Below the pieces are notes generated by a model. It made no database searches. It was not told the DNA's origin and saw only the letters and a program-made list of their open reading frames with translations. Below are positions 27,268 to 61,148 of a stretch of 64,000 nucleotides of DNA, piece by piece (position 1 is the stretch's first letter; each line of letters starts with the position of its first letter). The stretch is from an uncultured Spirochaetota bacterium (GTDB lineage Bacteria; Spirochaetota; Brevinematia; Brevinematales; JAOACQ01), in assembly GCA_963768055.1 (NCBI GenBank), contig CAVYGN010000001.1, forward strand, positions 640,001 to 704,000, in the 5' to 3' direction. Made by a program: the position numbers and the translations under genes.

Positions 27268-27322
27268 TCCAGCCTGCCGTTCTTCATTGAATTTTGATAA
27301 AAGAGCCGGAAGGGGATAGAAT
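27268..27322 (+). repeat. Intergenic cassette repeat with promoter
   Basis: CCAGCCTGCC...TTGAATTTTGATAAAAGAGCCGGAAGGGGATAGAAT; -35 at 27294, -10 at 27317. Confidence 0.8.
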
Positions 27323-27420
27323 GAGGAATATTTATCAGCTTTTCATAAGTTTTGGACAATTATTGTGATAATTATTAATAAAATTATGATATAATATTTT
27401 CATAAAAAAGGAGGATTATT

Positions 27421-27924
27421 ATGCCGGATTCAATTCTTGTTGCCTATACTACAGTTGCGGGTTCAACAAAGGAAGTTGCTGAAAATTTAGGAATGGTGTT
27501 GAAAGAGGATGGTTTTAAAGTTGATATCTTACCTTTAAAAGAAATATCTTCAGTTGAAGGTTATAAAGCAATTATAATAGGGGCGCCTCTCTATATGTTT
27601 CATTGGCACAAAGATGCTCATCGTTTTCTTGAGAAGTACCGTAAAAACTTAATAAATATCCCTATAGCAGTTTTTGCTCTTGGACCCTTTAATGATGTAG
27701 AGAAAGAATGGAATGACGTAAAAGCCAACTTTGTTTTAGAATTAACAAAACATTCCTGGTTAATACCTGTTGATTCAACAATATTTGGCGGAAAATTTGA
27801 TCCTTCTAAACTGAAATTCCCATTTAATTTAATTCCAGCACTTAAGAAGCTACCTACCAGTGATATTAGAGATTGGGACAAAATAAGGTTTTGGGCTGAT
27901 AACTTGGCTAGTAAAATTAAATAA
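27421..27924 (+). CDS. Flavodoxin-domain protein (HemG-like)
   Basis: ILVAYTTVAGSTKEVA, IIIGAPLY, DIRDWDKIRFWA. Confidence 0.85.
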   Translation: MPDSILVAYTTVAGSTKEVAENLGMVLKEDGFKVDILPLKEISSVEGYKAIIIGAPLYMFHWHKDAHRFLEKYRKNLINIPIAVFALGPFNDVEKEWNDVKANFVLELTKHSWLIPVDSTIFGGKFDPSKLKFPFNLIPALKKLPTSDIRDWDKIRFWADNLASKIK

Positions 27925-27954
27925 CTTTTACTTATTGGTAACCAAGTGATACAC

Positions 27955-28007
27955 CTTGCCAGACAAATAGTGAATTTTGATAAAAGTGCCAAGGGAAGAT
28001 AGAATAA
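27955..28007 (+). repeat. Intergenic cassette repeat with promoter
   Basis: TTGCCAGACAAA...TTGATA(27977)-N17-TAGAAT(28000). Confidence 0.8.
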
Positions 28008-28030
28008 AGGAAAAATTTTGGAGGAGTATA

Positions 28031-28684
28031 ATGTTTGAAAGGTTAACAATAGAGCACGATAAAAAATTTGAAGATATTATTGAATCACGCCGCTCAGTAA
28101 GAGCGTTCAAATCAAATCCTCCCGAGGATGATATTATAAAGAAGATAATCTCTGCGGGTCTTATTGCTCCATTTGCTGCAATCCCGGCTGCTGGAACCAA
28201 AGATTTTCGAAAGTTTTTTATTATACCTGCAGCATCAAAAACAATTGAACAAATTTCAATGATTGTAGATGAACGACTCCAAATGTTAAAAGAGTCTCTT
28301 GAAAAAGAGTATGGAGATCATCCATATACAAATTTTATAAAACTGGCAGCTTCTGCAAAGTTTCAGAAAATAATTGGGAATGCACCTTTTTTAATAATTG
28401 CTGCTGAAAGGAAAGGAATACCTTCTAATACATCTGAATCTTTAAGTTATTGTATGTATAATATGTGGCTTAGAGCAATATCTTTGAAAATTGGTTTCTG
28501 CCTATTTTCATTATTGACAACATTAAACTTAGAAAATGATTCCAAGTTTTGCAATACAATAAAATTACCTATCGGAACCTTTGCTATAAATGCTTGTTTA
28601 ATAGGCTATCCCGATGATTCTTTTAAAGTTCAGCCAGTAAATTATCCTGATTATGATCAAAATATAATGTGGTTTAAAAATTAA
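28031..28684 (+). CDS. Nitroreductase family protein
   Basis: IESRRSVRAFK, AGLIAP, NMWLRAISLKIG, IGYP. Confidence 0.85.
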   Translation: MFERLTIEHDKKFEDIIESRRSVRAFKSNPPEDDIIKKIISAGLIAPFAAIPAAGTKDFRKFFIIPAASKTIEQISMIVDERLQMLKESLEKEYGDHPYTNFIKLAASAKFQKIIGNAPFLIIAAERKGIPSNTSESLSYCMYNMWLRAISLKIGFCLFSLLTTLNLENDSKFCNTIKLPIGTFAINACLIGYPDDSFKVQPVNYPDYDQNIMWFKN

Positions 28685-28721
28685 TTTCAGTGAATATTAA
28701 TTGCTCTTCCCCCTCTGCTTT

Positions 28722-29084
28722 ATGCAAAAGAAGGAAACCTGTCCAACTAATTTAGTCCCAGCAGATTCATATTTTATGGTAAATGAATCTGGGAAAATAA
28801 TAGGAACAGTTCAAATAAGGCATACATTAAATGAATATTTACTGAACTATGGCGGTCATATCGGTTATGGAATCCGACCATTAGAACGCCAAAAAGGACA
28901 CGCAAAAGTTATATTAAAGCTTGCTTTGAAAAGATGTCTCGAATTGAATATCAGGAAGATTCTAATAACCTGTAATAAAGGCAATATTGCTTCTGCAAAA
29001 ACCATTATTGCTAATGGTGGTGTACTTGAGAATGAAATTCCAGAAGGAGATAAAATAAAGCAAAGATACTGGATTACTATTTAA
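28722..29084 (+). pseudogene. GNAT acetyltransferase, 5'-truncated at a repeat copy (28703-28721)
   Basis: IRHTLNEYLLNYGGHIGYGIRP..R.KG...NIASAKTIIANGG; the N-terminal part is replaced by GCTCTTCCCCCTCTGCTTT. Confidence 0.7.
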
Positions 29085-29100
29085 GTGAAAATTTCTAATT

Positions 29101-29188
29101 CTCTCCCGCTGCTTTGCATTCTTCCCCCGTTTTCAGCATTGCCAGACAAATGAAATTTTGATAAATCTGAGGGACGGGATTAGAATAA
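29101..29188 (+). repeat. Full-length intergenic cassette repeat with promoter
   Basis: CTCTCCCGCTGCTTTGC-CTTCCCCCG-TTGCCAGACAAA-TTGATA(29158)-N17-TAGAAT(29181). Confidence 0.85.
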
Positions 29189-29239
29189 TAACGGGGGTGG
29201 ATTGATACATTAAACATATAGAGATTCAGAGGGTTGTAA

Positions 29240-29743
29240 ATGTTAGGCCTTGAAAGAAAAAAAGTTATTCTTGTGGAACATGACGATGAATGGATTTCAA
29301 ACTATGAATCAGAATCTACGGCTATAAGGGATGCTTTAGGTGATTTGGTAATCGATATACAGCATTTCGGCAGTACATCTGTACCGGGATTAAAAGCAAA
29401 GCCTATTATTGATATTTTGGTTGGAATACAGTCATTCGATAAAATTGATTTGATTATTAAACAAATGGAATCTTTGGATTACACATATGCTCATTGGGCA
29501 GGAATACCTGATGATTATACTTTCAGAAAAGGTGATAAAACGACATACTTAGTTCATATAGTAATTTATAAAACAAACAATTGGAACCATAATATTACAT
29601 TTCGTGATAAGCTCAGAAACGACTCTGCTTTATTTAAGCAATACGAGAATTTAAAAGAAGGCTTAGCCAAAAAATATCCAGATTCCCGTGAAAAATATAC
29701 AATGGGGAAAAGTAAATTTATTGAAGATACATTGAACGGATAA
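29240..29743 (+). CDS. GrpB family protein
   Basis: IQHFGSTSVPGLKAKPIIDILVG, FRDKLR, YTMGKSKFI. Confidence 0.9.
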   Translation: MLGLERKKVILVEHDDEWISNYESESTAIRDALGDLVIDIQHFGSTSVPGLKAKPIIDILVGIQSFDKIDLIIKQMESLDYTYAHWAGIPDDYTFRKGDKTTYLVHIVIYKTNNWNHNITFRDKLRNDSALFKQYENLKEGLAKKYPDSREKYTMGKSKFIEDTLNG

Positions 29744-29766
29744 GAAAAGCATCCAGTATTTTATCA

Positions 29767-29797
29767 GCTCCCTCTGCTTTGCCCGCTGTGAGGGATG
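29767..29797 (+). repeat. Short-form cassette repeat
   Basis: GCTCCCTCTGCTTTGCCCGCTGTGAGGGATG. Confidence 0.8.
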
Positions 29798-29834
29798 TAA
29801 GGTGGGGATATTTTTATTGAAAGGAGATTATTAT

Positions 29835-30608
29835 ATGAATCAGAAAATAGTAAACATGCTTATTAAACCTGGAACAAATGAAAATTTGGAATATTTTGAA
29901 AAAGACGGAATAGAATGGTTACAGGATAAAAGTGATAACAAATATAAGATAGATGATGGAATTATTCGCTTTCTTGCTGGAATTGAATTATCAGGAAATA
30001 ATAAGAGTTTTCAGAAAATGTATGATGGATTTTCAGGATTATATGATTTTGTCACACACTTTTTCGCTCTATTTAGAAGAGGTGGGGAGAAAAGAAGTCT
30101 TATGCAATATCTTTCAGAATTGGATATAATAGATGGTGAGAAAGTTATCGAAATATCTATTGGGACAGGGAGAAATATAAAATATCTGAATCCCCAAGCC
30201 GAATATTTTGGTGTAGACATTTCTTTTGGAATGCTTAGAAAGTGTATGAGAAATATGTTAAAGCGAAGATATACTATTAATCTGATTCAGGCTGAAGCAG
30301 AAAACCTTCCTCTTCGTGATAATTCTTTCGATCATGTTTTTTCTGCCGGAGGTTTTAATTATTTTAATGATAGGCAAAAAGCGATTGATGAAATGTTACG
30401 GATTGCAAAGCCTGGAACTAAATTAATGATTTCTGATGAGCCAGAAAAAATGATGAAATCATTTGAAAATATTCCTATTTTTGGAAAACTTTTTAAGCAG
30501 GATATGTCAAAAAAGCCGATTGATTTTGTTCCAAAAAATTGTCTTGAAATACAGTATAGAGAAATTTGTAATGGCGATCTGTATGTTTTAACTTTTATAA
30601 AACCATAA
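29835..30608 (+). CDS. Class I SAM-dependent methyltransferase
   Basis: VIEISIGTG, GVDIS, AENLPLRDNSFD, EMLRIAKPG. Confidence 0.9.
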   Translation: MNQKIVNMLIKPGTNENLEYFEKDGIEWLQDKSDNKYKIDDGIIRFLAGIELSGNNKSFQKMYDGFSGLYDFVTHFFALFRRGGEKRSLMQYLSELDIIDGEKVIEISIGTGRNIKYLNPQAEYFGVDISFGMLRKCMRNMLKRRYTINLIQAEAENLPLRDNSFDHVFSAGGFNYFNDRQKAIDEMLRIAKPGTKLMISDEPEKMMKSFENIPIFGKLFKQDMSKKPIDFVPKNCLEIQYREICNGDLYVLTFIKP

Positions 30609-30746
30609 TAGGAACTATCTATTGCCAGGTAAGAATTATTCAATCTTCATACTATTCCCCATCTTTCATTTCCCCTTGCCTTTTCTTTACCCCCTTCCCC
30701 CTTTATTATATAATACTCTCAAGAATTTCAAATAGAGAGGGGAATT

Positions 30747-31040
30747 ATGGCAACCGATTACTTTGAAGCGAGAAAAGCTGCAAGAAAGCCGGTTTGTATA
30801 GAAGCTGCTTATGAGTTGAATGGCATAAAAGCTGACTGTGCCATTTTAGACATATCCTCTTCAGGATTAAGAATGCGGGTAAAGGGGCTTCTTTATAAGA
30901 ACGACAAAGTTAATATAAAATTGGATGATCAGAAATTTCCTTCAATGGTAGTTTATGTTGAAGGAAATATTATTGATGTTCATTTTATGGAACTAACGGA
31001 TAGTCAGTTAAATTATATTTTCAAACTTAAAGGATTTTGA
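30747..31040 (+). CDS. PilZ-domain protein
   Basis: RxxxR (RKAAR) and DxSxxG (DISSSG) motifs. Confidence 0.85.
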   Translation: MATDYFEARKAARKPVCIEAAYELNGIKADCAILDISSSGLRMRVKGLLYKNDKVNIKLDDQKFPSMVVYVEGNIIDVHFMELTDSQLNYIFKLKGF

Positions 31041-31115
31041 TAAAGTTAATTAGCAGAGAGGTATCTTATGGCTGAATGTGAAAGCTTGAACTCGCAGGGA
31101 GTGATCGTAGTAATA

Positions 31116-31706
31116 TTAATGATAAGAATTTTTAAACGCAAATTTTTCAATCGACTCGAATAATGTTTTCTGCTGGCCATGTAAGGTCTCGCTGGAATAT
31201 AAAAGAGGCACAAAAAATCCTGAAATAGATTCCTCAAAGTAGACTTTTGTATTTCCGTCAGGCATTGACTGTAGAACATGCCTGTCGATCCCCTTTGTCC
31301 ACAAAGATCTTCCAACCCACGTTAATTCGTTCTCAGGATTTACAACCGCAAATTTAGCGTTTATCTGGAACCCTTTTGATTTAAAAGACATTCGGGCGCC
31401 GGCAGATACCGTTGATTCAAGTTTGACTTCGCTGAAAGAAGGATCAATCCGGGGCCATTCCTGAAAATTGAAAAGAATATCCCAAACTTTAGCGATAGGT
31501 GCTTTAATAATACCTTCGAAGGAGGATTTAATCGCAGCCTTTTCATCAATTAGCCCTTTTTGTGCATATTCTTTGAATAATTTGTCGTAAGAAGGTCCAT
31601 TATAAAAAATCTTTCCCATAAAACCCTCCTCATTTATTGATCCTAAAAACAAAATCACAAATAATAGTAATAAAGCCCCTAAAAAAAAGTACCATTTGAA
31701 TTTCAT
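31116..31706 (-). CDS. SRPBCC family protein
   Basis: IKAPIAKVWDIL.NFQEWP...ELTWVG...FEESISG. Confidence 0.8.
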   Translation of the reverse strand: MKFKWYFFLGALLLLFVILFLGSINEEGFMGKIFYNGPSYDKLFKEYAQKGLIDEKAAIKSSFEGIIKAPIAKVWDILFNFQEWPRIDPSFSEVKLESTVSAGARMSFKSKGFQINAKFAVVNPENELTWVGRSLWTKGIDRHVLQSMPDGNTKVYFEESISGFFVPLLYSSETLHGQQKTLFESIEKFAFKNSYH

Positions 31707-32092
31707 AGCTTTACTTCTTTATCCGATATTTCCCAAATAACACACAACACTCTCCCGTTTGAGAGATTATTTTATTATGATAACAGAAAACATTCTTGTC
31801 AATGTCAAAATCAGGTTTTCTTTCCATAAAATCACTTCAATATTAACATAAAATCAGATTTCAGGCGATTTCCTGATAACCTTTATACAAAAAGGGGATA
31901 GTAACACCTTGTAAAATCTGATATCGAATGATAGTGTTAACCAACGCCAAACAGTAACCTTAATCTATGTAATCTATCAAAGATAGCAGCAAACAACCCT
32001 TTCGGTACGGCCGAGCCTTAAAAAGTGGGAGGTATCATCTGGCACTCGTAAAAAATATTTATTAGTGCCAGAGTGCCAGGATAAACGTGATA

Positions 32093-32431
32093 TTAGAATT
32101 CTTTTTTTATAATTCTATCAAAAAGGACATCTTCAATATTTCTTCTGCCATCAATTACCGCAAGAATAAATATATCGGTTTTATCAATTTTGTAGAAAAT
32201 CCTCCAGGGATTGTCGATTATTTCCCGGTATATATTAATATTAAGAGATTCTAATTCTGGTATGATTCTTCCTTTATTCTGCATGAATTGTAAATCATCA
32301 ACTTTTGAAATAATTCTTTTATAAATTTGATTGGCTCGTTCAAACCCGTCTTTCATGATAAAATCAACAATATTATTTAAGTCTCGCTGTGCTGGTTTAG
32401 TCCACTTAACATTATAACTTGAATTATCCAT
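32093..32431 (-). CDS. RelE/ParE family toxin
   Basis: VKWTKPAQRDL, GRIIPEL, YREII..PWRIFY, VIDGRRN. Confidence 0.9.
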   Translation of the reverse strand: MDNSSYNVKWTKPAQRDLNNIVDFIMKDGFERANQIYKRIISKVDDLQFMQNKGRIIPELESLNINIYREIIDNPWRIFYKIDKTDIFILAVIDGRRNIEDVLFDRIIKKEF

Positions 32432-32714
32432 TGCTTTTAGTCAGGCTTTTCATCTTTTGGTCCATCTGCCTTTTAAATTCTTCATGAGATATAAAATTAT
32501 TATTCTTTATATCCTGCTCGCTTTCATTGATGATTTTTAATATAGACACAGCATTTATCAGGTTTTCATAACTGTCAGTATCAATAATAACAGCTTTTGC
32601 CAGACCGTTTTGAGTTATAAAAATTGGTCTATGATTGGAATTTATTTGTTTTAAAATATCAGCGGTATGTGATTTGATAAAAGAAATTGGTTTTACATCT
32701 TCTTTTAATTTCAT
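32424..32714 (-). CDS. Phd/YefM family antitoxin
   Basis: VKPISFIKSH...PIFITQNGLAKAV; overlaps the toxin gene. Confidence 0.9.
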   Translation of the reverse strand: MKLKEDVKPISFIKSHTADILKQINSNHRPIFITQNGLAKAVIIDTDSYENLINAVSILKIINESEQDIKNNNFISHEEFKRQMDQKMKSLTKSNG

Positions 32715-32819
32715 AAATTACTCCTTATCAGTGCATATATGGTACTAAAATAAGACCGTTTTGTCAAATAACAAGAACTGTCAGTTCTATTTTTGAGAGC
32801 GAATGATAACACTGCATTA

Positions 32820-33227
32820 TCAAGGGTTTTCGGTTTGTTCATTTTTCTTTATATCAATAAATTCAACACTCACTTTGTTTTGTTTGCCGATAAAATATTT
32901 AATTACTTTTGCTTTTTCCTGGATTTCTTTAATATTTTCTTCAAAGACTTTTTCAATTTTATCTTCGGTTTTATCATTTAATGTAGTCATTAATATATTT
33001 TTTACTTCATCATCATCCATATTAATATAATTTCTTAAGACAACTTCCTCTGAGTCGCCTGTCAGTTTTGAAACCAATTTAATATCATGCGTTTGTTGCC
33101 ATAAAAAAGTAGCGCTTGAATGTCTAATAACATAAATTGTAAGATCTTTGTCAAGGTTAAATACCTTTTTAATAGTATTCCATTTGTTTTTATAAATCCC
33201 TCTCGTTTTTGAATTAGGGTATTTCTC
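32820..33227 (-). pseudogene. Tyrosine recombinase C-terminal catalytic remnant
   Basis: Extending ORF 32820-33077 upstream in frame gives LTIYVIRHSSATFLWQQTHDIKLVSKLTGDSEEVVLRNY (box II RH to catalytic Y). Confidence 0.7.
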
Positions 33228-33230
33228 CCT

Positions 33231-33329
33231 CCGACAATCCGCTTCATTGCGGGATCAACGTATCTTTCTGCATCGTTCGTATCTTCGTATCCAGCAATCC
33301 TTGAGAAAACAGACTGTCGTAGTTGAGCT
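33231..33329 (-). pseudogene. IS1380-family transposase fragment
   Basis: AQLRQSVFSRIAGYEDTNDAERYVDPAMKRIVG, homologous to 4958-5206. Confidence 0.75.
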
Positions 33330-33362
33330 TATAGGTATAAATAATAGATCAGACATCGAAGG

Positions 33363-33399
33363 TGAATTTTGATAAATCTGAAGGATGCGATTAAAATAA
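33363..33399 (+). repeat. Cassette repeat, promoter half
   Basis: TGAATTTTGATAAATCTGAAGGATGCGATTAAAATAA; TTGATA-N17-TAAAAT. Confidence 0.75.
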
Positions 33400-33465
33400 T
33401 GGTTAGGATGGAATTAAATGAATAATAATTACCACGGAAAGGATAATTTCAAAAGGTGATTTCAA

Positions 33466-33945
33466 ATGAATTCTTACAAAAGATTATTCGGTTCAGGACC
33501 AATTTGTTTGCTGACAGGTTTCATATTATTTTTTATTGCATATTATTTGAAAATTGTATTTCATGCCCCTCAAATATTTATTGACCAGAAAATATTACGT
33601 TTAGCAATTTTTACTATACTGACCTCAATCACTATTATAATCAGCATTTGGATCTTTACATCATTAAGCCTGGAATCAAGAGGGAGAACATTGATAACAA
33701 CTGGCGCTTTCAAATACTTCCGTCATCCTTTATATGCCGCTTTTATAACATTTTTCTCTTTCGGATCGGCTATTCTATTAAATAACTGGATATTTATCTT
33801 ATGGGCTTTCCTTCTGCATTTTATTGGACATTTGCTTGTCGCAAGGGAAGAGAAGATGTTGAAAGAAATATTCCCAAATGATTATGAGGATTATTGTAAA
33901 AATACCGGAAGATTTATCCCGAGATTGATAATAAAAAGGCAGTAA
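33466..33945 (+). CDS. Isoprenylcysteine carboxyl methyltransferase family membrane protein
   Basis: LITTGAFKYFRHPLY...EEKML...YEDYCKNTGRFIP. Confidence 0.9.
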   Translation: MNSYKRLFGSGPICLLTGFILFFIAYYLKIVFHAPQIFIDQKILRLAIFTILTSITIIISIWIFTSLSLESRGRTLITTGAFKYFRHPLYAAFITFFSFGSAILLNNWIFILWAFLLHFIGHLLVAREEKMLKEIFPNDYEDYCKNTGRFIPRLIIKRQ

Positions 33946-34027
33946 GAATTATGACACAAAAGGCTTGCAGGTCCTGCATGCATTAAACCTGAATTGGGGC
34001 ATTAAATTATTTTGGACTGAAAAAATT

Positions 34028-34069
34028 AGCAAAATATATGTTGAATAATTCATTCCGGAATGGCATAAT
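34028..34069 (+). promoter_or_regulatory. Promoter module TTGAAT-N17-CATAAT with palindrome CATTCCGGAATG; second copy at 63020-63061
   Basis: About 42-bp near-identical match upstream of unrelated genes. Confidence 0.65.
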
Positions 34070-34100
34070 ATAAAAAGAGTCTATTAAAATTTGGGGAAAT

Positions 34101-34952
34101 TTGATGACTGAAAAATTCAATAGTTCTGTAAGCACAATGCTGCCTGTTAAAATGAAGCTTAATTTTGTGTATATTAACACAATTATTCTTATGGCATTAA
34201 TGATTTTTGTTTCGGTTTTTGGAATACTTAATCAAAATAAAATATATCCGGGTAAAGAATTATCAATAAATTTTATCTCGAATGATATATGCAATCTAAC
34301 TCTTGGCTTACTGATTATTGTAATTTCAATGCTTCTTACATTAAAGGGGAATCTTGCGGGGTTATTATTTTATCCGGGAGCGCTATTTTACATCACTTAT
34401 GATTATGTAAACTATCTTTTGGGATTGCCATTTAATATTTTATTTATTCCATATCTTATTCTTGTGATAGTTAGTATTTATACCATAATCGGATTGATTC
34501 TCGGAATAGATAGCGAGCAAGTATATAAAAAACTCAATGGTTATGTCCCTATAAGAACGGCAGGATCAACATTGTTTGTATTAGCCTGTTTGGTGATAAT
34601 ATTTCAGCTATATGCAATTGTAATTGCCTTAATAAAACAATCAAATATAGATCATATTATGATTGCGCAATGGATTGATGACCTTGTTATCGCATCTCCG
34701 CCATTTATTATTATTGGTTTTTTAATGATGCGCCGTAAAGCCTTAGGATTTACAGCGGGAGTTGGTTTGCTTCTTTTTTGGGGTTTATTGTGTGTCGGAG
34801 TTATTCTCATAATTATATTTAAAAGTGTTCTTACAAATACTTCGATTGACATTACAGGTTTATTAGTGGTTTTAGCATCGACTCTTATAATTCTCATACC
34901 TTTAATTTTATTTATAAGAGGTATTAATAAGGCTGTTAAAATAAAACCATAA
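34101..34952 (+). CDS. Hypothetical multi-pass membrane protein
   Basis: About 8 hydrophobic segments. Confidence 0.7.
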   Translation: MMTEKFNSSVSTMLPVKMKLNFVYINTIILMALMIFVSVFGILNQNKIYPGKELSINFISNDICNLTLGLLIIVISMLLTLKGNLAGLLFYPGALFYITYDYVNYLLGLPFNILFIPYLILVIVSIYTIIGLILGIDSEQVYKKLNGYVPIRTAGSTLFVLACLVIIFQLYAIVIALIKQSNIDHIMIAQWIDDLVIASPPFIIIGFLMMRRKALGFTAGVGLLLFWGLLCVGVILIIIFKSVLTNTSIDITGLLVVLASTLIILIPLILFIRGINKAVKIKP

Positions 34953-35058
34953 GAAATTTAACGGCTTGATTTATTGTTTCACCTTCCAATTGTATTGTCA
35001 TTCTCCACGGGATTAGAATAATACTGAGTCGGTTTATTACTTTAAGTAGGAAGAAATT

Positions 35059-35772
35059 ATGCAGGAAATAATTGAAGGCATTTTAACGGAAGAATTACCT
35101 TCTAATATTTATACTTATGGGTTTGCCGACTTGAACAATCTTTTATCAACCATTTATAAAGATTATCAATATGGAATTTCATTAATGAGAAAATTGGATG
35201 ATGAAATTATTGATGAAATTTCCGAGGGACCAACTTTAAAGTATTGGAACCATTACAAAGAAATAAATAATGAGTTGAGGGAAAAAGTTATTATAATAGC
35301 CAATCTATTAAAATCAAAAGGTATAGAAGCTATTGGGATTTCTTCGGTTGAAGATGATGAACGTGATGATAATTATGAGAAATATTTAAGGTATAGATTA
35401 TCACATAAAATGGTGGCAACTCGTGCTGGTTTTGGATGGATTGGGAAAACAGATTTATTTATTTCAAAGAAATATGGTCCAAGGATTAGATTAGCATCTA
35501 TTCTTATAAATTCAAAAGTTCAATCAAAGGATATGCCTTTAAATGAAAGTCTTTGCGGAATTTGTTCCGTTTGTGTTGATTTTTGTCCTGCAAAAGCGGC
35601 TAATGGCAAATTATGGAATATCAGTACAGATAGGGATGAGTATTTTGACGCTTTCAAATGCAGGGATAATTGCGTAAAATTAACCACAGATAAAATCGGT
35701 AAAGATGAAAGATTATGTGGAATTTGTGTGTCTTTATGTCCAAGAGGGAAATTGAATAAAGTAGTACAGTAA
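35059..35772 (+). CDS. Epoxyqueuosine reductase-like 4Fe-4S protein
   Basis: SHKMVATRAGFGWIGK, YGPRIRL, CGICSVCVDFCP, CGICVSLCP. Confidence 0.85.
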   Translation: MQEIIEGILTEELPSNIYTYGFADLNNLLSTIYKDYQYGISLMRKLDDEIIDEISEGPTLKYWNHYKEINNELREKVIIIANLLKSKGIEAIGISSVEDDERDDNYEKYLRYRLSHKMVATRAGFGWIGKTDLFISKKYGPRIRLASILINSKVQSKDMPLNESLCGICSVCVDFCPAKAANGKLWNISTDRDEYFDAFKCRDNCVKLTTDKIGKDERLCGICVSLCPRGKLNKVVQ

Positions 35773-35787
35773 AACAGATTTTATTTA

Positions 35788-35832: not shown

Positions 35833-35856
35833 CCTATTAATTTGAAGGAGAGATTA

Positions 35857-37040: not shown

Positions 37041-37080
37041 TCCTCTGCTTTGCCAGCTATGAGGAGCGGGATTAGAATAA
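37041..37080 (+). repeat. Short-form cassette repeat with intact promoter
   Basis: TCCTCTGCT-TTGCCA(37050)-N17-TAGAAT(37073). Confidence 0.8.
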
Positions 37081-41462: not shown

Positions 41463-41499
41463 GAAATTTTGATTAATCTATGGGTCGGGATTAGAATAA
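41463..41499 (+). repeat. Cassette repeat, promoter half
   Basis: GAAATTTTGATTAATCTATGGGTCGGGATTAGAATAA; TTGATT-N17-TAGAAT. Confidence 0.7.
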
Positions 41500-48973: not shown

Positions 48974-49028
48974 AGGCATATATTTTACAATATCGGCAGT
49001 CGATAGTCAACAGCCGACAGTCAAGTCA

Positions 49029-49706: not shown

Positions 49707-49794
49707 TATTAGATCTCCTTTATTAAAACTGAAATAGTATATCACAATTTTGACAAATCATCGATTTCTGCTTAGAATATTTCTTCAATATACC

Positions 49795-50947: not shown

Positions 50948-51021
50948 CTCTTTTCCTTCCCCCTTCTATCCGTCATACTCTATTAAAATTTTGATAAATC
51001 TGAGGGACGGGATTAGAATAA
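50948..51021 (+). repeat. Cassette repeat with promoter
   Basis: Pyrimidine arm, then TTGATA(50991)-AATCTGAGGGACGGGAT-TAGAAT(51014), identical to 29158-29186. Confidence 0.85.
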
Positions 51022-53932: not shown

Positions 53933-53945
53933 AAATTAGTTGAAA

Positions 53946-54034
53946 CTCTTCCCCCCTCTGCTTCCCTTCCCCCTTTTCCAGCCTTTCTTTCTCCATTGAA
54001 TTTTTGATAAAAGCGCCGGGAGGGGATAGAATAA
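53946..54034 (+). repeat. Full-length cassette repeat with promoter
   Basis: CTCTTCCCCCCTCTGCTT...TTTTCCAGCCT...TTGATA(54004)-N17-TAGAAT(54027). Confidence 0.85.
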
Positions 54035-54076
54035 GGTAATGGGATTAAAAGGTTTAATCATTATTTTGGAGGTTTT

Positions 54077-54988
54077 ATGTTTAAGAGAGCTGTACTAATA
54101 ATTTTTTCTTTATTATGTTTTTCAAATTTAATGATATCAGATGAAATGAAAGACATATACACAAATTTATTGCAAAAAAGGGATTTTGATGCTTTGTACA
54201 TTCATTTAACAAATTGGGAAAAACAATCTCCAGATAATCCCGAAATGTATATTGGATTTTTCAATTATTATGTTTTTAGAAACAAAAAAGAAGGAGTTGT
54301 TTTAGGCAAAACTCCAAAATCAAATGCAGTGTTCAAATTTAATATTACAGATCCAAAAACAGGCAAAGTTGTTGGTTATATGAATGGCACCGAAATTTAT
54401 AACAGTGAAGATGTTCAAAAGGGGATAACATATATTGAAAAAGCTTTATCTTTGTATCCCAACCGACTTGACATGCATTTTGGCAAAGTTTATATACTTG
54501 GTGAAATTGAAGATTATAATAATTTCACTGAACAGCTTATTAAAATAATGGATATTTCTAAAATAAACAATAATAAATGGCTATGGGCAGATGGCAAAGA
54601 ATTGCCTGATGCAAAGAACTTTGTTGAAAATAATATTCAAGCAAAAATAAGGCAATTATTTGCACTCAGTTCTGATGAAGGAGATGAGTTATTATACACT
54701 CTTTCAAAGAAGTTGATTGAAGTTTATCCCGATTGCATTTACGGATATGATAATACAGGTTTATACTGCATGCTAAAAAAAGATTATAAAGGGAGTTTGT
54801 CTTACTTTAAACAAGCTGAGGCAATCAATTCAAAAGATGGTTATGTATTATGGCATATGGCAATAGCATATGAAAATATAAATGATTTAGATAATGCAAA
54901 AGCCTATTACATTAAAGTAATTTCTTATGGGGATGAGCAATTAAAAAGGAATGCAAAAAAGAAATTGGACATTTTAGAGAATAAATGA
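54077..54988 (+). CDS. Exported TPR-repeat protein
   Basis: Signal-like N-terminus; YPNRLDMHFG; C-terminal TPR-like helices. Confidence 0.7.
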   Translation: MFKRAVLIIFSLLCFSNLMISDEMKDIYTNLLQKRDFDALYIHLTNWEKQSPDNPEMYIGFFNYYVFRNKKEGVVLGKTPKSNAVFKFNITDPKTGKVVGYMNGTEIYNSEDVQKGITYIEKALSLYPNRLDMHFGKVYILGEIEDYNNFTEQLIKIMDISKINNNKWLWADGKELPDAKNFVENNIQAKIRQLFALSSDEGDELLYTLSKKLIEVYPDCIYGYDNTGLYCMLKKDYKGSLSYFKQAEAINSKDGYVLWHMAIAYENINDLDNAKAYYIKVISYGDEQLKRNAKKKLDILENK

Positions 54989-54997
54989 AAATTTAAC

Positions 54998-55053
54998 GCT
55001 TCCCCCATTTGCTTTGATAAAACAGATAAAAGCGCCTGGAGGGGATAGAATAA
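54998..55053 (+). repeat. Cassette repeat, internally rearranged
   Basis: GCTTCCCCCATTTGCTTTGATAAAACAGATAAAAGCGCCTGGAGGGGATAGAATAA. Confidence 0.8.
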
Positions 55054-55084
55054 TGAAACGGATTGTTTAAGGGATAATAAACTT

Positions 55085-55384
55085 ATGTCAGTTTATATGA
55101 TTATTGAATACAAAAAAATCGAAAATGAAGCTGTATATAATGATTATATAATTCGGGCAGAACCAATTATTAAGAAATATAATGGTGAATATATAGTAAG
55201 AACCAATAAGATTAAATATCTCAATAATGATGATTGTAATCCAAAAAGAATAGTAATAATTAAGTTTCCATCGAATGAAAATTTGGATAAATGTTTTAAT
55301 AGTGAAGAATATAAGAAGATAAAATTATTAAGAGAAGATTCAACAATTAGCAGGGCAGTAATTGTTGAGGGATATGTATCATAA
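55085..55384 (+). CDS. DUF1330 family protein
   Basis: IKKYNGEYIVR...RIVIIKFPS...FNSEEYKKIKLLR...VEG. Confidence 0.85.
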   Translation: MSVYMIIEYKKIENEAVYNDYIIRAEPIIKKYNGEYIVRTNKIKYLNNDDCNPKRIVIIKFPSNENLDKCFNSEEYKKIKLLREDSTISRAVIVEGYVS

Positions 55385-55405
55385 AACAAAATATAATGAG
55401 GTAAT

Positions 55406-56161
55406 ATGAAGACTTTTTATATTCTTTTTTTATTTTCTTTTATTCTACTATCATGTGAAAGGCATCCAACTATAAATCATGTAATAATTAACGAAGATTA
55501 TTATTATAAAATTTTAAAAACGACTCAATTATATGACATTAATAAACTTCTTTATTTTATTGATTTTAACGATCATCATGGCGGAGTTTACTTCGGAAAA
55601 GAATTGAAATATCATGATTTCCATAGTTTTCAAATTGCTCAAGATCAGGATTTTAAGAAGATTAATAGCTATATTATATTTATTGTTAGTAATAGCATAA
55701 ATCAATTATACAGGGGAAAATATTATTATGTTATTTATTGGACCATAGATAATAAAGTAATAAAAAGAGGTCATTTTTATGACTCAATAACAGGAGAAGG
55801 GGGAAGTGGATTTCTTGAAATAAGAAATTTATACATATTAACCCCATCAGAAGCTGTAGAATATTTTACAAATAAATATTCGATAAATACAGAAGTGGTT
55901 GAACCTATTGAAGCAGTATATTTAAAAACTTCATTTTGGGTACAATTGGAATCTTTTTGGTTTTACAAAATAAAATTTATAAAAAATGTTTCTATTAATA
56001 ATCATATAAATAAAGAGTATTACATAAGTCCATTTGTCTTAAAAACAAATAAAAATGAAAAGCCGAGTGATTATAATTATAGTCTAATAATATTTCCAAA
56101 TTATACGTCAAGATGTTATTTTATTGATAATAAAGGAGAAATGACTCCACTAAATAGATAG
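55406..56161 (+). CDS. Hypothetical lipoprotein
   Basis: GAGG RBS; LLSC lipobox. Confidence 0.6.
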   Translation: MKTFYILFLFSFILLSCERHPTINHVIINEDYYYKILKTTQLYDINKLLYFIDFNDHHGGVYFGKELKYHDFHSFQIAQDQDFKKINSYIIFIVSNSINQLYRGKYYYVIYWTIDNKVIKRGHFYDSITGEGGSGFLEIRNLYILTPSEAVEYFTNKYSINTEVVEPIEAVYLKTSFWVQLESFWFYKIKFIKNVSINNHINKEYYISPFVLKTNKNEKPSDYNYSLIIFPNYTSRCYFIDNKGEMTPLNR

Positions 56162-56169
56162 ATACTTTG

Positions 56170-56241
56170 TCTGCTTTCCCATTTTCCGGCATTCCCAAAC
56201 AATTGAATTTTTGATAAAAACGCCAGGAGGGGATAGAATAA
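56170..56241 (+). repeat. Cassette repeat with promoter
   Basis: TTGATA(56211)-N17-TAGAAT(56234). Confidence 0.8.
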
Positions 56242-56260
56242 AGAAAAAATGAGGGTTATT

Positions 56261-57544
56261 ATGAAACAAAGATTTGTTTTTATTATCATTTTAATTTTTA
56301 TCAATTCATATTCTTTTTCTGATTTTAACCACAGGTCGATAACAAGCTGTATATTATCAATGCCAACAAATTTTTCTGGTTTTGAATTCAAGGTTATTAG
56401 TAATGAATTATATTATTATGGCAATGATTATTATGGCTATAATAGCTCATTTAAAAAAGTATTTTTAGATGAAAAAAATGGTTATATTAAAATATTCCCA
56501 AACCCACGTAATATAAGTTCTGGGAATCTTAAATTCTACCCTGGAGATTTCTATGATACATATGCACTATTTTTAGACAGTAATAACAATCCTTATATTT
56601 CAAGGTTTGAATATTTCATTAATGAAAATAAGGATTTAGAAACATCTATAATGATATATTCATATTCCATTGAATGGTTTTTGTGTAGCAATATTATTTC
56701 CAATTTTTCAATTAATGATTTTTACACAAACACCAATATTGATATTCCTAATGATAATATATTGATATTTTATGAATTACCACAATATGGAACAATAATC
56801 AGAGTCGAGCCTTATTTAATTAATAATACTGATTTTGAATATATTCCGAATTTTGATTATATAGAGTTGAATTGGGACAAAACAAATGGTGTGTTTTTTA
56901 TTAACAATAAGCATTTAAATAAAAATAAATTATTTTTTGTAAACAAGTTAGCTTATGAATCTACTTCATATAAAGATTATTTAATTCTTAATGATACTAA
57001 TAAAAACGAATTACTATTAAATATGGTAAATTCAATCAAAACTATTGACGATTGTGAGAAATTATACTGGATTCTTATTGCTAATAAGTTTGAAGATATA
57101 AAATTAACTTTTAATATTATACAACCCTTCACACATAAAGTTATGGAATTTTATAATAAGTACCCTGTTCAAGTAATTTCAATGTGTACAGGTTTAAATC
57201 ATGGTGGAGCAGCATCAGATGAACAAGCAGTATTTTTATTTGAATACTTATACTGGAGGAATCCATATCTATACTTATCCTCAATAAGTCAAACAAATAT
57301 AATAGATAATTATTTTCTTCCTAATGATTCTGGGGAATTAATCAAAGATTATATGTATTGGCTACCTAAAAGTAATTATGATATCGAAGCCTTTGGTGGA
57401 ATAACACCTGAGAATAAAAATAAAGTCAGAAATCAAACAAGAAAAGATGTCATTAATTTAATAAATAAATTACCAGAAAATGAAAGATGGATTTCAAATA
57501 AAATTATTAAGCATACTTACTTTATGACACATCCCGATGAATGA
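56261..57544 (+). CDS. Hypothetical exported protein
   Basis: Long ORF with signal-like N-terminus. Confidence 0.6.
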   Translation: MKQRFVFIIILIFINSYSFSDFNHRSITSCILSMPTNFSGFEFKVISNELYYYGNDYYGYNSSFKKVFLDEKNGYIKIFPNPRNISSGNLKFYPGDFYDTYALFLDSNNNPYISRFEYFINENKDLETSIMIYSYSIEWFLCSNIISNFSINDFYTNTNIDIPNDNILIFYELPQYGTIIRVEPYLINNTDFEYIPNFDYIELNWDKTNGVFFINNKHLNKNKLFFVNKLAYESTSYKDYLILNDTNKNELLLNMVNSIKTIDDCEKLYWILIANKFEDIKLTFNIIQPFTHKVMEFYNKYPVQVISMCTGLNHGGAASDEQAVFLFEYLYWRNPYLYLSSISQTNIIDNYFLPNDSGELIKDYMYWLPKSNYDIEAFGGITPENKNKVRNQTRKDVINLINKLPENERWISNKIIKHTYFMTHPDE

Positions 57545-57554
57545 AATAATTTGA

Positions 57555-57593
57555 GCTCTTCCCCCTCTGCTTTGCCTGCTGTGAGGGATGGGG
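57555..57593 (+). repeat. Short-form cassette repeat
   Basis: GCTCTTCCCCCTCTGCTTTGCCTGCTGTGAGGGATGGGG. Confidence 0.85.
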
Positions 57594-57612
57594 AGGATAG
57601 GGAGAATTAGTT

Positions 57613-58212
57613 ATGCGAGATATAATTACTATATTATTCAATAACTTTGAAACCATTGATGTCTTTGGACCAATAGAAGTATTTGGAAGATTAAACGACA
57701 ATTTTAATTCGCAATTTTATTCACAAAATGGCGGGATTATTGTAAGCAGTCAGAATGTCCCAATAATGACCAGGGCAATATCAGAAATAAATTCGAATAA
57801 TTACATACTCTTCATACCTGGTGGAATTGGAACAAGGGAATTGTTCAAAGATAAGGTATTTATTGATAGTCTTAAGTCATTGTCAAAAGATGCTGAGTTT
57901 ATATTTACGGTCTGCACTGGTTCAATTTTATTCTCTAAAACAGGATTGTTAAACGGGAAAAAAGCGACTTCAAACAAACGGTTTTTTGAGACGACAAAAG
58001 AATCTCCTGATGTAAACTGGATAAAAAAAGCTCGGTGGGTGAAAGATGGAAATATTTATACGAGTTCGGGCATAAGCGCTGGAATCGATATGGCATTAGG
58101 GTTTATATCTGACTTATTAGGTTATTCTATTGCGAAACAACAGAGCAATGAAATTGAATATGACTGGAAAGAAGATCCTGACTGGGACCCATTGTCAGAG
58201 TTATATAAATAA
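57613..58212 (+). CDS. DJ-1/PfpI family protein
   Basis: FETIDVFGP, IPGG, VCTGS, TSSGISAGIDMAL. Confidence 0.9.
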   Translation: MRDIITILFNNFETIDVFGPIEVFGRLNDNFNSQFYSQNGGIIVSSQNVPIMTRAISEINSNNYILFIPGGIGTRELFKDKVFIDSLKSLSKDAEFIFTVCTGSILFSKTGLLNGKKATSNKRFFETTKESPDVNWIKKARWVKDGNIYTSSGISAGIDMALGFISDLLGYSIAKQQSNEIEYDWKEDPDWDPLSELYK

Positions 58213-58237
58213 TACTCCTTTTAGTTAACTTGTTTAC

Positions 58238-58294
58238 CTGCCAGCCTTCCTCTTTCCAGCCTGCCAGACAATTGAATTTTTGATAAAAGTGCCA
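58238..58294 (+). repeat. Cassette repeat truncated within the promoter spacer
   Basis: TTTCCAGCCTGCCAGACAATTGAATTTTTGATAAAAGTGCCA then diverges. Confidence 0.8.
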
Positions 58295-58473
58295 ATCATA
58301 ATGTCTCTGCATTTTACCTGCATTGCGGGTACATTAATTTTACCAATTGAATATTTTAAGATATAATATATTGCTATCACCAATAAAACTGCAAGACATA
58401 TGGGCTTGCGACTTCCTTTCTTTCTGACGGATAAATAGACCGTTAAAAAAATATTTTAAGAGAAGGAGTATTT

Positions 58474-59013
58474 ATGGTGAACCTATCTGTATTAAAGGAA
58501 CCAACGGAACTATCATTGCTCATATCCTTTTGCGACCTAAGCAATTTTGCAAAATTATCACAAAAGATGAATGAATTTGAACTCTTCAAATTTGTTTCAA
58601 ATTTCTATGGGCAAATAGGAGAAATTATCGAATCATCAGGCGGAACAATAATTAAGTTTATTGGTGATGAAGCCTTAATAATCTATCCGGAGGATAAAAT
58701 TGATATAGGTGTTATAAGTGTGTTAAAATTGAAGCATTTAATTGACGGACAGAACAAAGGTAATGGAATTGATTCACGACTAAATGTTAAAATTCATTTT
58801 GGAAAAGTAGTTGCTGGGTTATTGGGGACACAATCTACAAAGCGCCTGGATATTATTGGTAAAGAAGTGAATACAGCGGCTTTACTAAAATCTAATGGAT
58901 TCGCGATGACACCCGAAGTATTCAGAAAATTAAACAAAGAAACAAGAACTTTGTTTAAAAAGCATACACCTCCAATAACTTATATCCCTTTAGAAGAAAG
59001 GCATAAAGATTAA
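58474..59013 (+). CDS. Class III adenylate/guanylate cyclase domain protein
   Basis: FCDLSNF, IKFIGDE, IHFGKV, DIIGKEVNTAA. Confidence 0.85.
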   Translation: MVNLSVLKEPTELSLLISFCDLSNFAKLSQKMNEFELFKFVSNFYGQIGEIIESSGGTIIKFIGDEALIIYPEDKIDIGVISVLKLKHLIDGQNKGNGIDSRLNVKIHFGKVVAGLLGTQSTKRLDIIGKEVNTAALLKSNGFAMTPEVFRKLNKETRTLFKKHTPPITYIPLEERHKD

Positions 59014-59061
59014 TTTAAATTGTATTGGTGATAGCATAATTTAATTCTGTCCTTGAGCCTG

Positions 59062-59137
59062 CATTTTAGCCTGCCTCCTTGTTCATACTCCCATACTTCA
59101 TTAATTTTGATAAAAGTGCCAGGAGGGGATAGAATAA
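59062..59137 (+). repeat. Cassette repeat with promoter
   Basis: TTGATA(59107)-AAAGTGCCAGGAGGGGA-TAGAAT(59130). Confidence 0.8.
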
Positions 59138-59162
59138 AGGAAAATTATGATTGGATGGATTT

Positions 59163-59582
59163 ATGAATATAAGGTTTTACAATAATGATTCAGACCAGGA
59201 ATCTGTTATTGAATTATGGAAGTCGGCGTTTAATTATGATTCACCCCACAATGATCCATTAACCTCAATAAAAAGGAAAATAGAATATAATGACAATCTG
59301 TTTTTTGTGGCAGAAACTGATGATAGAAAAATTATAGGTACAATTATGGCTGGATATGATGGACATAGGGGATGGATTTATTCACTTGCTGTTAAACAAA
59401 AACACAGGAATGAAGGGATTGGTACATTATTACTTCATTATGCTGAAAATGAATTATTGAAATTAAACTGCCCTAAAATCAACTTGCAAATATTGGCTTC
59501 CAATCAGGAAGTAATCGATTTTTATAAAAAGAATGGCTACAATATTGAGGAAAGGATAAGTATGGGTAAAAAGCTTTGTTAA
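59163..59582 (+). CDS. GNAT acetyltransferase (YpeA-like)
   Basis: MAGYDGHRGWIYSLAV, CPKINLQI, FYKKNGY..EERISMGK. Confidence 0.9.
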   Translation: MNIRFYNNDSDQESVIELWKSAFNYDSPHNDPLTSIKRKIEYNDNLFFVAETDDRKIIGTIMAGYDGHRGWIYSLAVKQKHRNEGIGTLLLHYAENELLKLNCPKINLQILASNQEVIDFYKKNGYNIEERISMGKKLC

Positions 59583-59603
59583 TCTGATAACAAAGATTTT
59601 GCA

Positions 59604-59663
59604 CTTCCCCCCTGCTTACCCTTCCTTCCTTTTTCAGCTTGCCCTCAAGGTAATTTTGATAAA
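59604..59663 (+). repeat. Cassette repeat truncated after the -35 element
   Basis: CTTCCCCCCTGCTT...TTTTCAGCTTGCC...AATTTTGATAAA. Confidence 0.75.
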
Positions 59664-59664
59664 T

Positions 59665-59763
59665 GATATAACAATAGTACTCAATGAGCCCCCTTTGGAA
59701 AATTGGGGATTGGCAGGAAAATCTGGAGAAGAAGCAAATATCGGATTCAATTTAAACGTTTAG
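59665..59763 (+). pseudogene. 3' remnant of a tautomerase-family gene
   Basis: DITIVLNEPPLENWGLAGKSGEEANIGFNLNV* lies between two repeat copies. Confidence 0.6.
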
Positions 59764-59767
59764 AATA

Positions 59768-59812
59768 GCTCTTCCCCCTCTGCTTTGCCTGTTATGAGGG
59801 ATGGGGTGAGGG
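59768..59812 (+). repeat. Short-form cassette repeat
   Basis: GCTCTTCCCCCTCTGCTTTGCCTGTTATGAGGGATGGGGTGAGGG. Confidence 0.85.
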
Positions 59813-59839
59813 TGAAGGATATATATAGGATAGGTAGTT

Positions 59840-60202
59840 ATGGGGCAATCTACTTCACAGACCACAGCTTTTTTTGAGGAAATTACTTTTAATAAAATTG
59901 TTTGGACAATTAAAGATGAAAAAGGATTTCCTGCTCCTTTAAACGCCGATGGTAAACGAGCTCAGCCATTTTGGTCTTCAAAATTGAGAGTTGAAAGAAT
60001 AATTAAAAAAGTAAAAGCATATTCTATATTTTCAATTCATGAAATATCTTTAAATAATTTTATAGAAAAATGGATTCCAGGGTTGAAAAAAGAAATATTG
60101 GTAGGTATTAATTGGTCTGGTGAAGAACAACGGGTTATGATTTTGAGCCAAAAGAGGTATTGGAAACAATCGAATATTATCTTTCTAAAGAAAAATGAAT
60201 AA
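59840..60202 (+). CDS. DUF2750 family protein (likely frameshift near the 3' end)
   Basis: VWTIKDEKGFPAP...AQPFWSS...VGINWSG; GYDFEPKEV appears in another frame. Confidence 0.7.
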   Translation: MGQSTSQTTAFFEEITFNKIVWTIKDEKGFPAPLNADGKRAQPFWSSKLRVERIIKKVKAYSIFSIHEISLNNFIEKWIPGLKKEILVGINWSGEEQRVMILSQKRYWKQSNIIFLKKNE

Positions 60203-60253
60203 GGAAATTTTGATGCGGATGAAAAAATAAAAAATATGATATTAAGCCTTAAT

Positions 60254-60280
60254 CTCTGCTTTGCCTGCTATAAGGGATGG
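60254..60280 (+). repeat. Short-form cassette repeat
   Basis: CTCTGCTTTGCCTGCTATAAGGGATGG. Confidence 0.8.
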
Positions 60281-60306
60281 TGTTTAAGGATCAAAGGAGA
60301 AAATTA

Positions 60307-61068
60307 ATGGAACTGGCTCAAGAACAATACAATAATATATCATATTACTACGAGATATTTTATTCGGGAATAGATTCAATCCAGTTCGAAAATGATTTTA
60401 TAAACCAGTTTAAGGAATATCTGGATAGGGTGCCAAATAATGCAAAAATTTGTGATTGCGCCTGTGGTAATGGAATTCAGGCTATAGCTCTGAAAAGACA
60501 AGGCTTTGATGTTATGGCAACAGATATTAGTGATGAAATGATAAGGTTGACTATAAAAAAAGCAAAGGAGAACAATTTAGATTTTCCAATAAAAAGAATG
60601 TCCTGGAAAGAACTATCGATAAGTAATCCAGACAAATTTGATGCTGTATTCTGCTGGGGAAATTCAATTAGTAATAGCCTGTCAAAACAGGAAATGATAG
60701 ATAACCTTAAATCGATTTATCAGACAATCAGGGCAAATGGAAAATTATTCATAGATACAAGAAATTGGGATAAATTAGTTAAAACCAAGCAGAGGTATTA
60801 TACCTATGATATCAAAGAATATATTGGTAAGAAATATTTACCCTTTTACATTATGAACATTGGCAATTTTGATGAGCAAAGTAATCTTGAAATGTTATTC
60901 CTTGAAATCAAAGATAATTTAAAAACAGAATGCATCGGGTTTAAATTAGATTTTATGCCCTTTACACATAATGATTTTAAACTGCGATTGAAAGAAGTTG
61001 GATTCAAAATATTGAAAGATAATTATAAGGATGATGAGGATTTTTATTATCTTGTGCTTGAGAAATAG
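60307..61068 (+). CDS. Class I SAM-dependent methyltransferase
   Basis: ICDCACGNG, ATDIS, FDAVFCWGNS. Confidence 0.9.
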   Translation: MELAQEQYNNISYYYEIFYSGIDSIQFENDFINQFKEYLDRVPNNAKICDCACGNGIQAIALKRQGFDVMATDISDEMIRLTIKKAKENNLDFPIKRMSWKELSISNPDKFDAVFCWGNSISNSLSKQEMIDNLKSIYQTIRANGKLFIDTRNWDKLVKTKQRYYTYDIKEYIGKKYLPFYIMNIGNFDEQSNLEMLFLEIKDNLKTECIGFKLDFMPFTHNDFKLRLKEVGFKILKDNYKDDEDFYYLVLEK

Positions 61069-61075
61069 ATGATTA

Positions 61076-61148
61076 CTCTGCCTGCCTCAGTATACCACTG
61101 TCATTCTCCGTTGAAATTTTGATAAAAGCGCCAAGATGGAATAAAATA
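61076..61148 (+). repeat. Cassette repeat with promoter
   Basis: TGTCATTCTCCGTTGAAAT-TTGATA(61119)-N17-TAAAAT(61142). Confidence 0.75.

Follow-up and report, generated by a model that had tools for sequence, protein, structure and literature searches.

The 64,000-nt stretch of DNA analysed here in full (the window) belongs to an uncultured spirochaete of the order Brevinematales (GenBank assembly GCA_963768055.1, contig CAVYGN010000001.1, positions 640,001 to 704,000) and contains arrays of small accessory genes, the junctions of which harbour a short repeat. The 5' module of this repeat, in its commonest form TTGATA and TAGAAT separated by 17 bp, is plausibly a sigma70-type (housekeeping) promoter. 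This is the best-supported reading of the module, since its geometry, its placement before open reading frames (ORFs), its likeness to the tRNA promoters, the conservation of its hexamers and its independence of the left arm of the repeat all argue for such a function. The arrays occupy 27.2-38.1 kb, 41.4-45.1 kb (a smaller set) and the region from 50.9 kb to past 64 kb, i.e. beyond the window edge, and have a G+C content of 27-34% compared with ~42% in core-like stretches.

A promoter-like module in front of array genes

The 5' module is ~55 bp long, spans about -20 to +34 relative to the start of the -35 hexamer and has the structure ..CCAGACAAWTGAATTTT-TTGATA-spacer-TAGAAT-AAAGG. The exact pattern TTGATA-N17-TAGAAT has seven matches in the window (27294, 27977, 29158, 50991, 54004, 56211 and 59107), all on the + strand, compared with 0.02 expected from 100 shuffles. 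The relaxed pattern TTG-N20-TARAAT adds 33369 and 61119, both with TAAAAT, as well as 41469 (TTGATT) and 37050 (TTGCCA), and the pattern search in this way recovered all eleven sites given in a preliminary description of this DNA. A further copy, damaged and absent from that list, is located at 55023 and is the twelfth in the window. The profile built from the copies detected 11 complete modules and the 37050 hybrid, together with three truncated pieces (58269-58294, 59646-59665 and 35008-35022), all of them on the + strand, and its matches with E < 0.001 are confined to 27.2-38.0, 41.4 and 50.9-63.0 kb of the window. With two copies from a second locus (L001, see below), the set comprises 14 complete copies, 12 of them in the window (including the 37050 hybrid and the damaged 55023). 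The copies are paralogous repeats of two spacer lineages, families A and B, just as had been described before, and for this reason the eleven sites do not amount to eleven independent observations. The two families differ at 9 of the 17 spacer positions and at none of the 12 hexamer positions. Their gapped alignment hints at compensating indels (-2/+1/+1) that would preserve N17, a hint that depends on the scoring, was obtained with composed consensus strings and carries little weight.

With respect to the consensus TTGACA/TATAAT, both TTGATA and TAGAAT match at five of six positions and stand at N17 in seven copies, with variants in four more. Downstream of each of the 14 complete copies, at a distance of 20-98 nt, begins an ORF on the same strand that encodes 99 or more amino acids and has a Shine-Dalgarno (SD)-like sequence. 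An internal positive control is offered by the two tRNA genes, the only ones in the window and also its only Rfam matches at gathering thresholds, since both are preceded by TTGAC[A/T]-N17-TA[G/A]AAT (n = 2). The -10 hexamer of the tRNA-Tyr promoter (TTGACA-N17-TAGAAT, 49750..49778, + strand) ends 16 nt upstream of the tRNA, and the flanks ATTTTGAcAAATC and TTAGAATA of this promoter recur in family B; for the tRNA-Arg promoter (TTGACT-N17-TAAAAT, 48982..49010, - strand) the corresponding distance is 7 nt.

No part of the repeat is better conserved than the -35/N17/-10 block. Information content is maximal at -4..+8 (AATTTTGATAAA) and at TAGAAT with the following AA, averages ~1.1 bits in the spacer and is only 0.3-0.5 bits outside -5..+33. 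Departures from the majority base of a copy's own family were counted at 5 of 156 hexamer positions and 23 of 221 spacer positions (Fisher p = 0.009, the independence of the copies being overstated), and reached 36-47% in the outer flanks; hence, hexamers vary less than both the spacer and the outer flanks within each family. A level of conservation close to that of the hexamers is also reached by the 4 nt that precede the -35 (5/52 departures) and by the 2 nt that follow the -10 (1/26). When copies were selected by the spacer only (at most 3 mismatches to one of the two spacer consensus sequences, irrespective of the hexamers), which avoids circularity, all 12 members proved to have TA[G/A]AAT and 10 of them TTGATA. 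The earlier proposal that hexamers and 17-bp spacing are conserved despite variable spacers is in agreement with these counts, although the variation of the spacers comes down to two lineages plus minor changes and lends the proposal less statistical weight than it seemed to have.

Conservation of this kind might also be expected of an inactive relic, i.e. of junction sequence that was copied together with the genes by duplication or recombination and has remained similar only through its youth. This explanation seems unlikely. It would account for conservation of the whole -4..+32 block beyond the hexamers, for the existence of only two lineages and for the decayed copies (55023, 58269 and 59646), but not for the roughly threefold lower variability of the hexamers compared with the spacer inside each family, and four of the five hexamer changes leave the key positions intact (TAAAAT in two cases, TTGATT in one); the remaining change is that of the damaged 55023. 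Moreover, the tRNA promoters match the module, and the module has persisted between different flanks in a second genome.

This second occurrence was found in a scan of a genome collection with a 21-position pattern representing both spacer families, which matched a single contig, L001, of a metagenome-assembled genome labelled uncultured Brevinematales bacterium. The scan did not match the window itself, the genome of which is apparently absent from that collection. L001 contains two complete copies, 5003 and 5882, which precede an MBL-fold gene and an MTHFR-like gene unrelated to the genes of the window. According to both blastn and tblastx, the module is the only DNA that is common to the window and L001. 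Near-identical modules of 40-53 nt that precede unrelated genes in a pair of genomes with nothing else in common are also what a small mobile element with an outward promoter, similar to a miniature inverted-repeat transposable element or a Correia element, would leave behind if it had been repeatedly inserted before genes. Such an origin is nevertheless highly doubtful. Correia elements carry terminal inverted repeats, generate target duplications and are distributed genome-wide in both orientations. In contrast, no inverted termini were found here: the search for inverted repeats (27000-38300 and 50900-62800) placed only the 29158 junction (29093-29185) among the top hits, no consensus pairing emerged, and terminal inverted repeats are therefore not a feature of the family. 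All 14 complete copies have one and the same orientation relative to the next gene, and the copies of the window lie only inside the arrays or at an array edge. The stable G+C-rich stem-loops typical of repetitive extragenic palindromic sequences and bacterial interspersed mosaic elements are not seen either, as no fold is stable beyond composition and the matches are confined to the arrays instead of being scattered across the window. What the Correia elements of Neisseria do have in common with the proposed function of the module is that a short intergenic repeat supplies the adjacent gene with a sigma70-type promoter, which in Neisseria, according to the available part of the report, is created at the ends of the element (PMC2649163).

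Several observations weigh against the promoter reading. In this AT-rich DNA, sites that match the consensus at 10 of 12 positions are frequent (104 in 50000-64000 versus 84 +/- 8 in shuffles), so any single site proves little. The copies represent two paralogous lineages, for which reason the Fisher test overstates their independence, and block-wide conservation, including the upstream AATT and the downstream AA, could be due to recent common descent. For a promoter, the spacer contains an unusual amount of G, the geometry is lost in one copy (55023), and two copies are truncated. Finally, the comparison set is tiny (one window and one 7-kb locus), and promoter activity is a prediction based on sequence.

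If the module is a sigma70-type promoter, TTGATA and TAGAAT at their 17-bp spacing would be the contact points for RNA polymerase, perhaps with the aid of the A/T-rich stretch upstream, and transcription would begin ~7 nt past TAGAAT, giving a leader of 13-90 nt that includes the SD site of the next gene. Each module would drive the next one to three genes, and the expression of genes behind short forms of the repeat would depend on read-through transcription from upstream. Of this scheme, the DNA itself shows the geometry of the module, where it lies and which way it points, the pattern of its conservation, its resemblance to the tRNA promoters and the fact that it can be separated from the left arm. 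The suggestion that each cassette is expressed independently is not supported, since the module stands before only 12 of ~33 + strand array genes (an ORF-based count); the remaining array genes are located behind short forms, behind nothing, or have other promoter-like sites.

An active module would imply that transcription of the arrays begins at many identical promoters inside them and not at one upstream, that distal array genes stay expressed, in contrast to the position-dependent expression of classical integrons, and that all could be controlled through one common sequence. Promoters of this kind, internal to arrays or borne by repeats, are already known, and the module would be a variant of them. 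In integrons, cassette-borne promoters are exemplified by the cmlA1, qacE and qnrVC1 5'UTR promoters, and promoter-bearing gene-less cassettes have been described for Vibrio superintegrons and Treponema integrons (PMC8876359, PMC11014356, PMC6557892; available parts of each). These promoters, too, lie inside arrays of unrelated co-oriented small genes and render expression independent of one upstream Pc. As far as the same parts of the reports show, however, each is private to one cassette or to a gene-less cassette between attC sites, whereas here the promoter would be a repeated unit common to 12 genes, and neither attC nor IntI was found in the window. The upstream homology box (UHB) of the Borrelia erp/ospE/ospF genes is likewise a spirochaete case of diverse genes with one conserved promoter region, but the UHB, in the part of the report available (PMC7002432), precedes paralogous lipoprotein genes on cp32 prophage plasmids, and the module precedes unrelated enzymes and domains of unknown function in chromosomal arrays. 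No account of a junction repeat that itself acts as a common promoter in a spirochaete array was found in the literature, which was covered in part. An active module would be a spirochaete addition to the few repeats known to distribute promoters.

Composite structure of the repeat

As judged from the junctions, the "cassette repeat" of the preliminary description is a composite of two separable modules, one at the 3' end of a gene and the other at the 5' end of the next, which abut between co-oriented accessory genes. The 3' module, M1 (GCTCTTCCCCCTCTGCTTTGCC), begins 2-21 nt after stop codons in a junction-by-junction reading, and its core, TGCTTTGCC, is identical in all nine short forms. 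It may be followed by an optional second C-rich tract, M2 (CCCTTCCCCCTTTTCCAGCCTGCC). In the short form, M1 continues into TGCTRTGAGGGATGGGG. The modules occur in several combinations: M1 with the short right part (9 copies); M1, with or without M2, ahead of the promoter module (29158, 54004, 55023 and L001 5882); the promoter module behind other C-rich sequence, i.e. M2 or a looser stretch with no clear M1 (27294, 50991, 56211, 59107 and 61119); and the promoter module with its hexamers kept and no C-rich part at all (27977, 33369, 41469 and L001 5003). The sequence that follows M1 always diverges within CTGCTT(TGCC), and truncation points vary, one copy being cut after GTGCCA and another after TTGATAAAT.

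The complete copies, all on the + strand, are distributed as follows. In the first array, the family A module at 27294..27322 opens the array after a divergent gene, 98 nt upstream of a flavodoxin-like ORF, and is followed by a second family A module (27977..28005), which lacks the C-rich left arm and precedes a nitroreductase-like ORF by 25 nt. Family B is represented by 29158..29186, with the C-rich M1 and M2 before it and a GrpB ORF 53 nt downstream, and by the solo module with TAAAAT at 33369..33397, which lies beside what is left of the C-terminal part of a decayed integrase (- strand). The hybrid copy at 37050..37078 consists of a short-form left part, with TTGCCA as its -35, fused to a family B right end with an intact TAGAAT. 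The smaller array set holds a solo family B module with TTGATT (41469..41497) after a divergent ABC operon and 51 nt ahead of a methyltransferase ORF. At the first junction of the third array another family B module is found (50991..51019), followed by the family A module at 54004..54032, a full long form (M1, M2 and promoter) with ~94% identity over 53 nt to L001 4988-5040. Further family A modules are those at 56211..56239, at 59107..59135, with a GNAT ORF downstream, and at 61119..61147, which has TAAAAT.

The damaged copy (55014..55051, + strand) has TTGATA (55014) 26 nt from TAGAAT and CAGATA at the 17-nt position (55023). A 9-nt tandem duplication, GATAAAACA/GATAAAAGC, shifted TTGATA 9 nt upstream, and the copy represents a natural spacing mutant. 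Of the truncated modules, 58269..58294 (+ strand) retains only the 5' half, ending after GTGCCA, and has a different promoter-like site, TTTACC-N17-TATAAT, behind it at 58339-58367. The module at 59646..59665 (+ strand), which ends after TTGATAAAT, is followed by ~110 nt without an ORF and then by a short form. The ORF-free interval between the two (59666-59770, ~105 nt), in which a small inverted repeat, CCCCC..GGGG, is present, may represent a unit without a gene.

The short form, which has no -10, is well represented by the copy at 57555..57598 (GCTCTTCCCCCTCTGCTTTGCC + TGCTGTGAGGGATGGGG); others are located at 29763-29804, 35792-35831, 37956-38000, 59768-59810, 60245-60288, 61766-61809 and 62963-63005, and an M1-only copy at 28703-28721 directly precedes a start codon (all + strand). 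Its core can be aligned without gaps to the family B promoter, TTTGCCTGCTATGAGGGATGGGGATTGAGG against TTTGATAAATCTGAGGGACGGGATTAGAAT. A -35-like TTGCCT is kept, and the position of the -10 is taken by TTGAGG, GGATAG or GAGGGT. As the alignment indicates, the short forms are homologous to the family B module, the -10 having been lost or never present. Two earlier suggestions, that the 37050 copy joins short and long forms and that the short forms are relatives devoid of a -10, are therefore sound. Sigma54 and sigma28 motifs, as well as a dif-like 11-6-11 arrangement of the short form, were inspected by eye only and dropped.

C-rich tracts are found after genes outside the arrays too, at 16150 and 20349, and they may therefore have a general role at 3' ends, for example as a Rho loading site or Rho-type terminator. 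The C-rich motif CCCATCTTTCATTT(T)CCCC follows genes both at 16150-16189, outside the arrays, and at 30655-30701, inside; at 30679-30707 it overlaps a promoter-like TTTACC-N17-TATAAT ahead of a PilZ gene.

A second common promoter-like module, ATGTTGAATAATTCATTCC[G/A]GAAT[G/A]GCATAATA (TTGAAT-N17-CATAAT), was noticed at 34038-34070 and 63030-63062, where it precedes two proteins without mutual blastp similarity. The spacer of the 34-kb copy contains a 12-bp palindrome, CATTCCGGAATG, which is operator-like. Given the dissimilarity of the genes behind it, common promoter modules may be a habit of these arrays.

The repeat as a possible recombination site

It was also considered whether the repeat is an attC site or another site of site-specific recombination, in which case the conserved blocks would be recombinase boxes and the likeness to a promoter incidental or secondary. 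The setting is suggestive: the repeats are placed at the 3' ends of small, co-oriented and functionally unrelated ORFs, with M1 close behind the stop codons, and a ParE/Phd pair is encoded on the opposite strand, as in chromosomal integrons. Furthermore, the C-rich left and G-rich right parts are able to pair (in the 29158 copy TAGAAT pairs with ATTCT), tyrosine-recombinase remnants adjoin the starts of two arrays, and the change after M1 always falls within CTGCTT(TGCC), as would be predicted for a crossover region of fixed position. Nevertheless, this explanation seems improbable in view of the solo modules, the differing truncation points and the lack of an IntI in the 64 kb, where recombinase traces are limited to a truncated N-terminus by tRNA-Tyr and a decayed C-terminus. 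A search of 71 ORFs against Pfam and NCBIfam found no complete tyrosine recombinase or integron integrase in the window; the array runs past 64000, and a distant intI could lie beyond the scanned DNA.

The structural hallmarks of attC gave no support to this explanation. The available part of PMC3607928 names a conserved hairpin, AAC/GTT cores and an IntI partner as the defining features of attC sites. The near-identical repeats at the junctions of a long accessory-gene array do resemble the attC sites of sedentary chromosomal integrons such as the Vibrio cholerae repeats (PMC8876359, available part), whereas scans of the window revealed neither a conserved hairpin nor AAC/GTT cores nor IntI. 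A lenient, home-made scan for AAC..GTT plus an L-box matched 4 of 24 junctions, compared with 1.8 +/- 1.2 in shuffles, and none of the matches fell on the repeat. DNA folding of 22 copies yielded z-scores between -2.4 and +1.3 for the top strand and mostly similar values for the bottom strand, with no excess stability, and the RNA folds of 17 copies all had z above -1.6. For the short forms, RNAalifold predicted 5 pairs (-0.12 kcal/mol), none of them backed by a compensatory change, and for the long forms it predicted none. When arms were swapped between copies, duplex energies did not single out a copy's own left arm as the systematically best partner (ranks 1 to 12 of 14), and the search for inverted repeats pointed in the same direction. 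Likewise, Rfam in E-value mode had no match in 27000-38300 and 50900-64000. The comparison with integrons made in the preliminary description thus finds no backing in the window, which has no IntI, attC-type hairpin or AAC/GTT enrichment and in which the supposed cassette repeat resolves into separable modules; the arrays are not demonstrably an integron. In the available part of PMC3607928, Treponema is the only spirochaete clade reported to have integrons, and the repeat marks a type of accessory-gene array, in an uncultured lineage, that would be missed by standard integron criteria.

One of the recombinase fragments (49949-50629, + strand) adjoins tRNA-Tyr and encodes an N-terminal part of 226 amino acids with a SAM-like domain only. 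This ORF has no PDB match, and no longer relatives of it were found, which is weak evidence. The decayed C-terminal remnant (32823-33254, - strand) matches Pfam Phage_integrase with E = 9.7e-4, below the cut-off, and a PHROG integrase with E = 6.5e-8; its ORF 32820-33077 gave no meaningful PDB match. The two fragments lie 17 kb apart on opposite strands. Their orientation fits a single inversion of ~33.34-50.63 kb, which would have split one island integrase with ~50 residues missing; alternatively, they could be two separate relics. One might also propose that Brevinematales-type spirochaetes carry a cassette platform other than an integron, with a sequence-defined junction (the invariant TGCTTTGCC core and exchange within CTGCTTTGCC) and promoter-bearing and promoter-less states, in which recombination shuffles genes and sets transcription starts at the same time. 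At present, this idea has to be regarded as a long shot, and the sigma70-type promoter remains the preferred reading of the 5' module.

Gene content and other repeats of the region

The genes of the arrays code for GNATs, methyltransferases, flavodoxin, GrpB, DJ-1 and several domains of unknown function. The ParE toxin/Phd antitoxin pair is located at 32093-32714 (- strand), opposite to the surrounding array genes; such pairs are common in large chromosomal cassette arrays. A blastn search with 53900-61200 matched only the DJ-1/PfpI gene in the plasmid collection and nothing in the phage collection. The closest Atlas clusters of the chemotaxis receptor encoded in the window are mostly from Spirochaetota, in line with the Brevinematales label carried by L001.

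Besides the junction repeat, the window harbours two identical 1,596-bp IS3-like insertion sequences with HTH_Tnp_1 and rve ORFs (23880-25475 and 52021-53616), each flanked by a 4-bp direct repeat (AAAC and GTAT, respectively). The second copy interrupts a peptidase-S49-like ORF within the array. Long direct repeats are also present and form two pairs (94-98% identity). The pair 2051-2477/20393-20818 comprises the upstream region and the start of two CBM_4_9 paralogues, and the pair 9316-9840/12645-13254 comprises the 3' end of a histidine-kinase gene together with the start of an HlyD-like gene.

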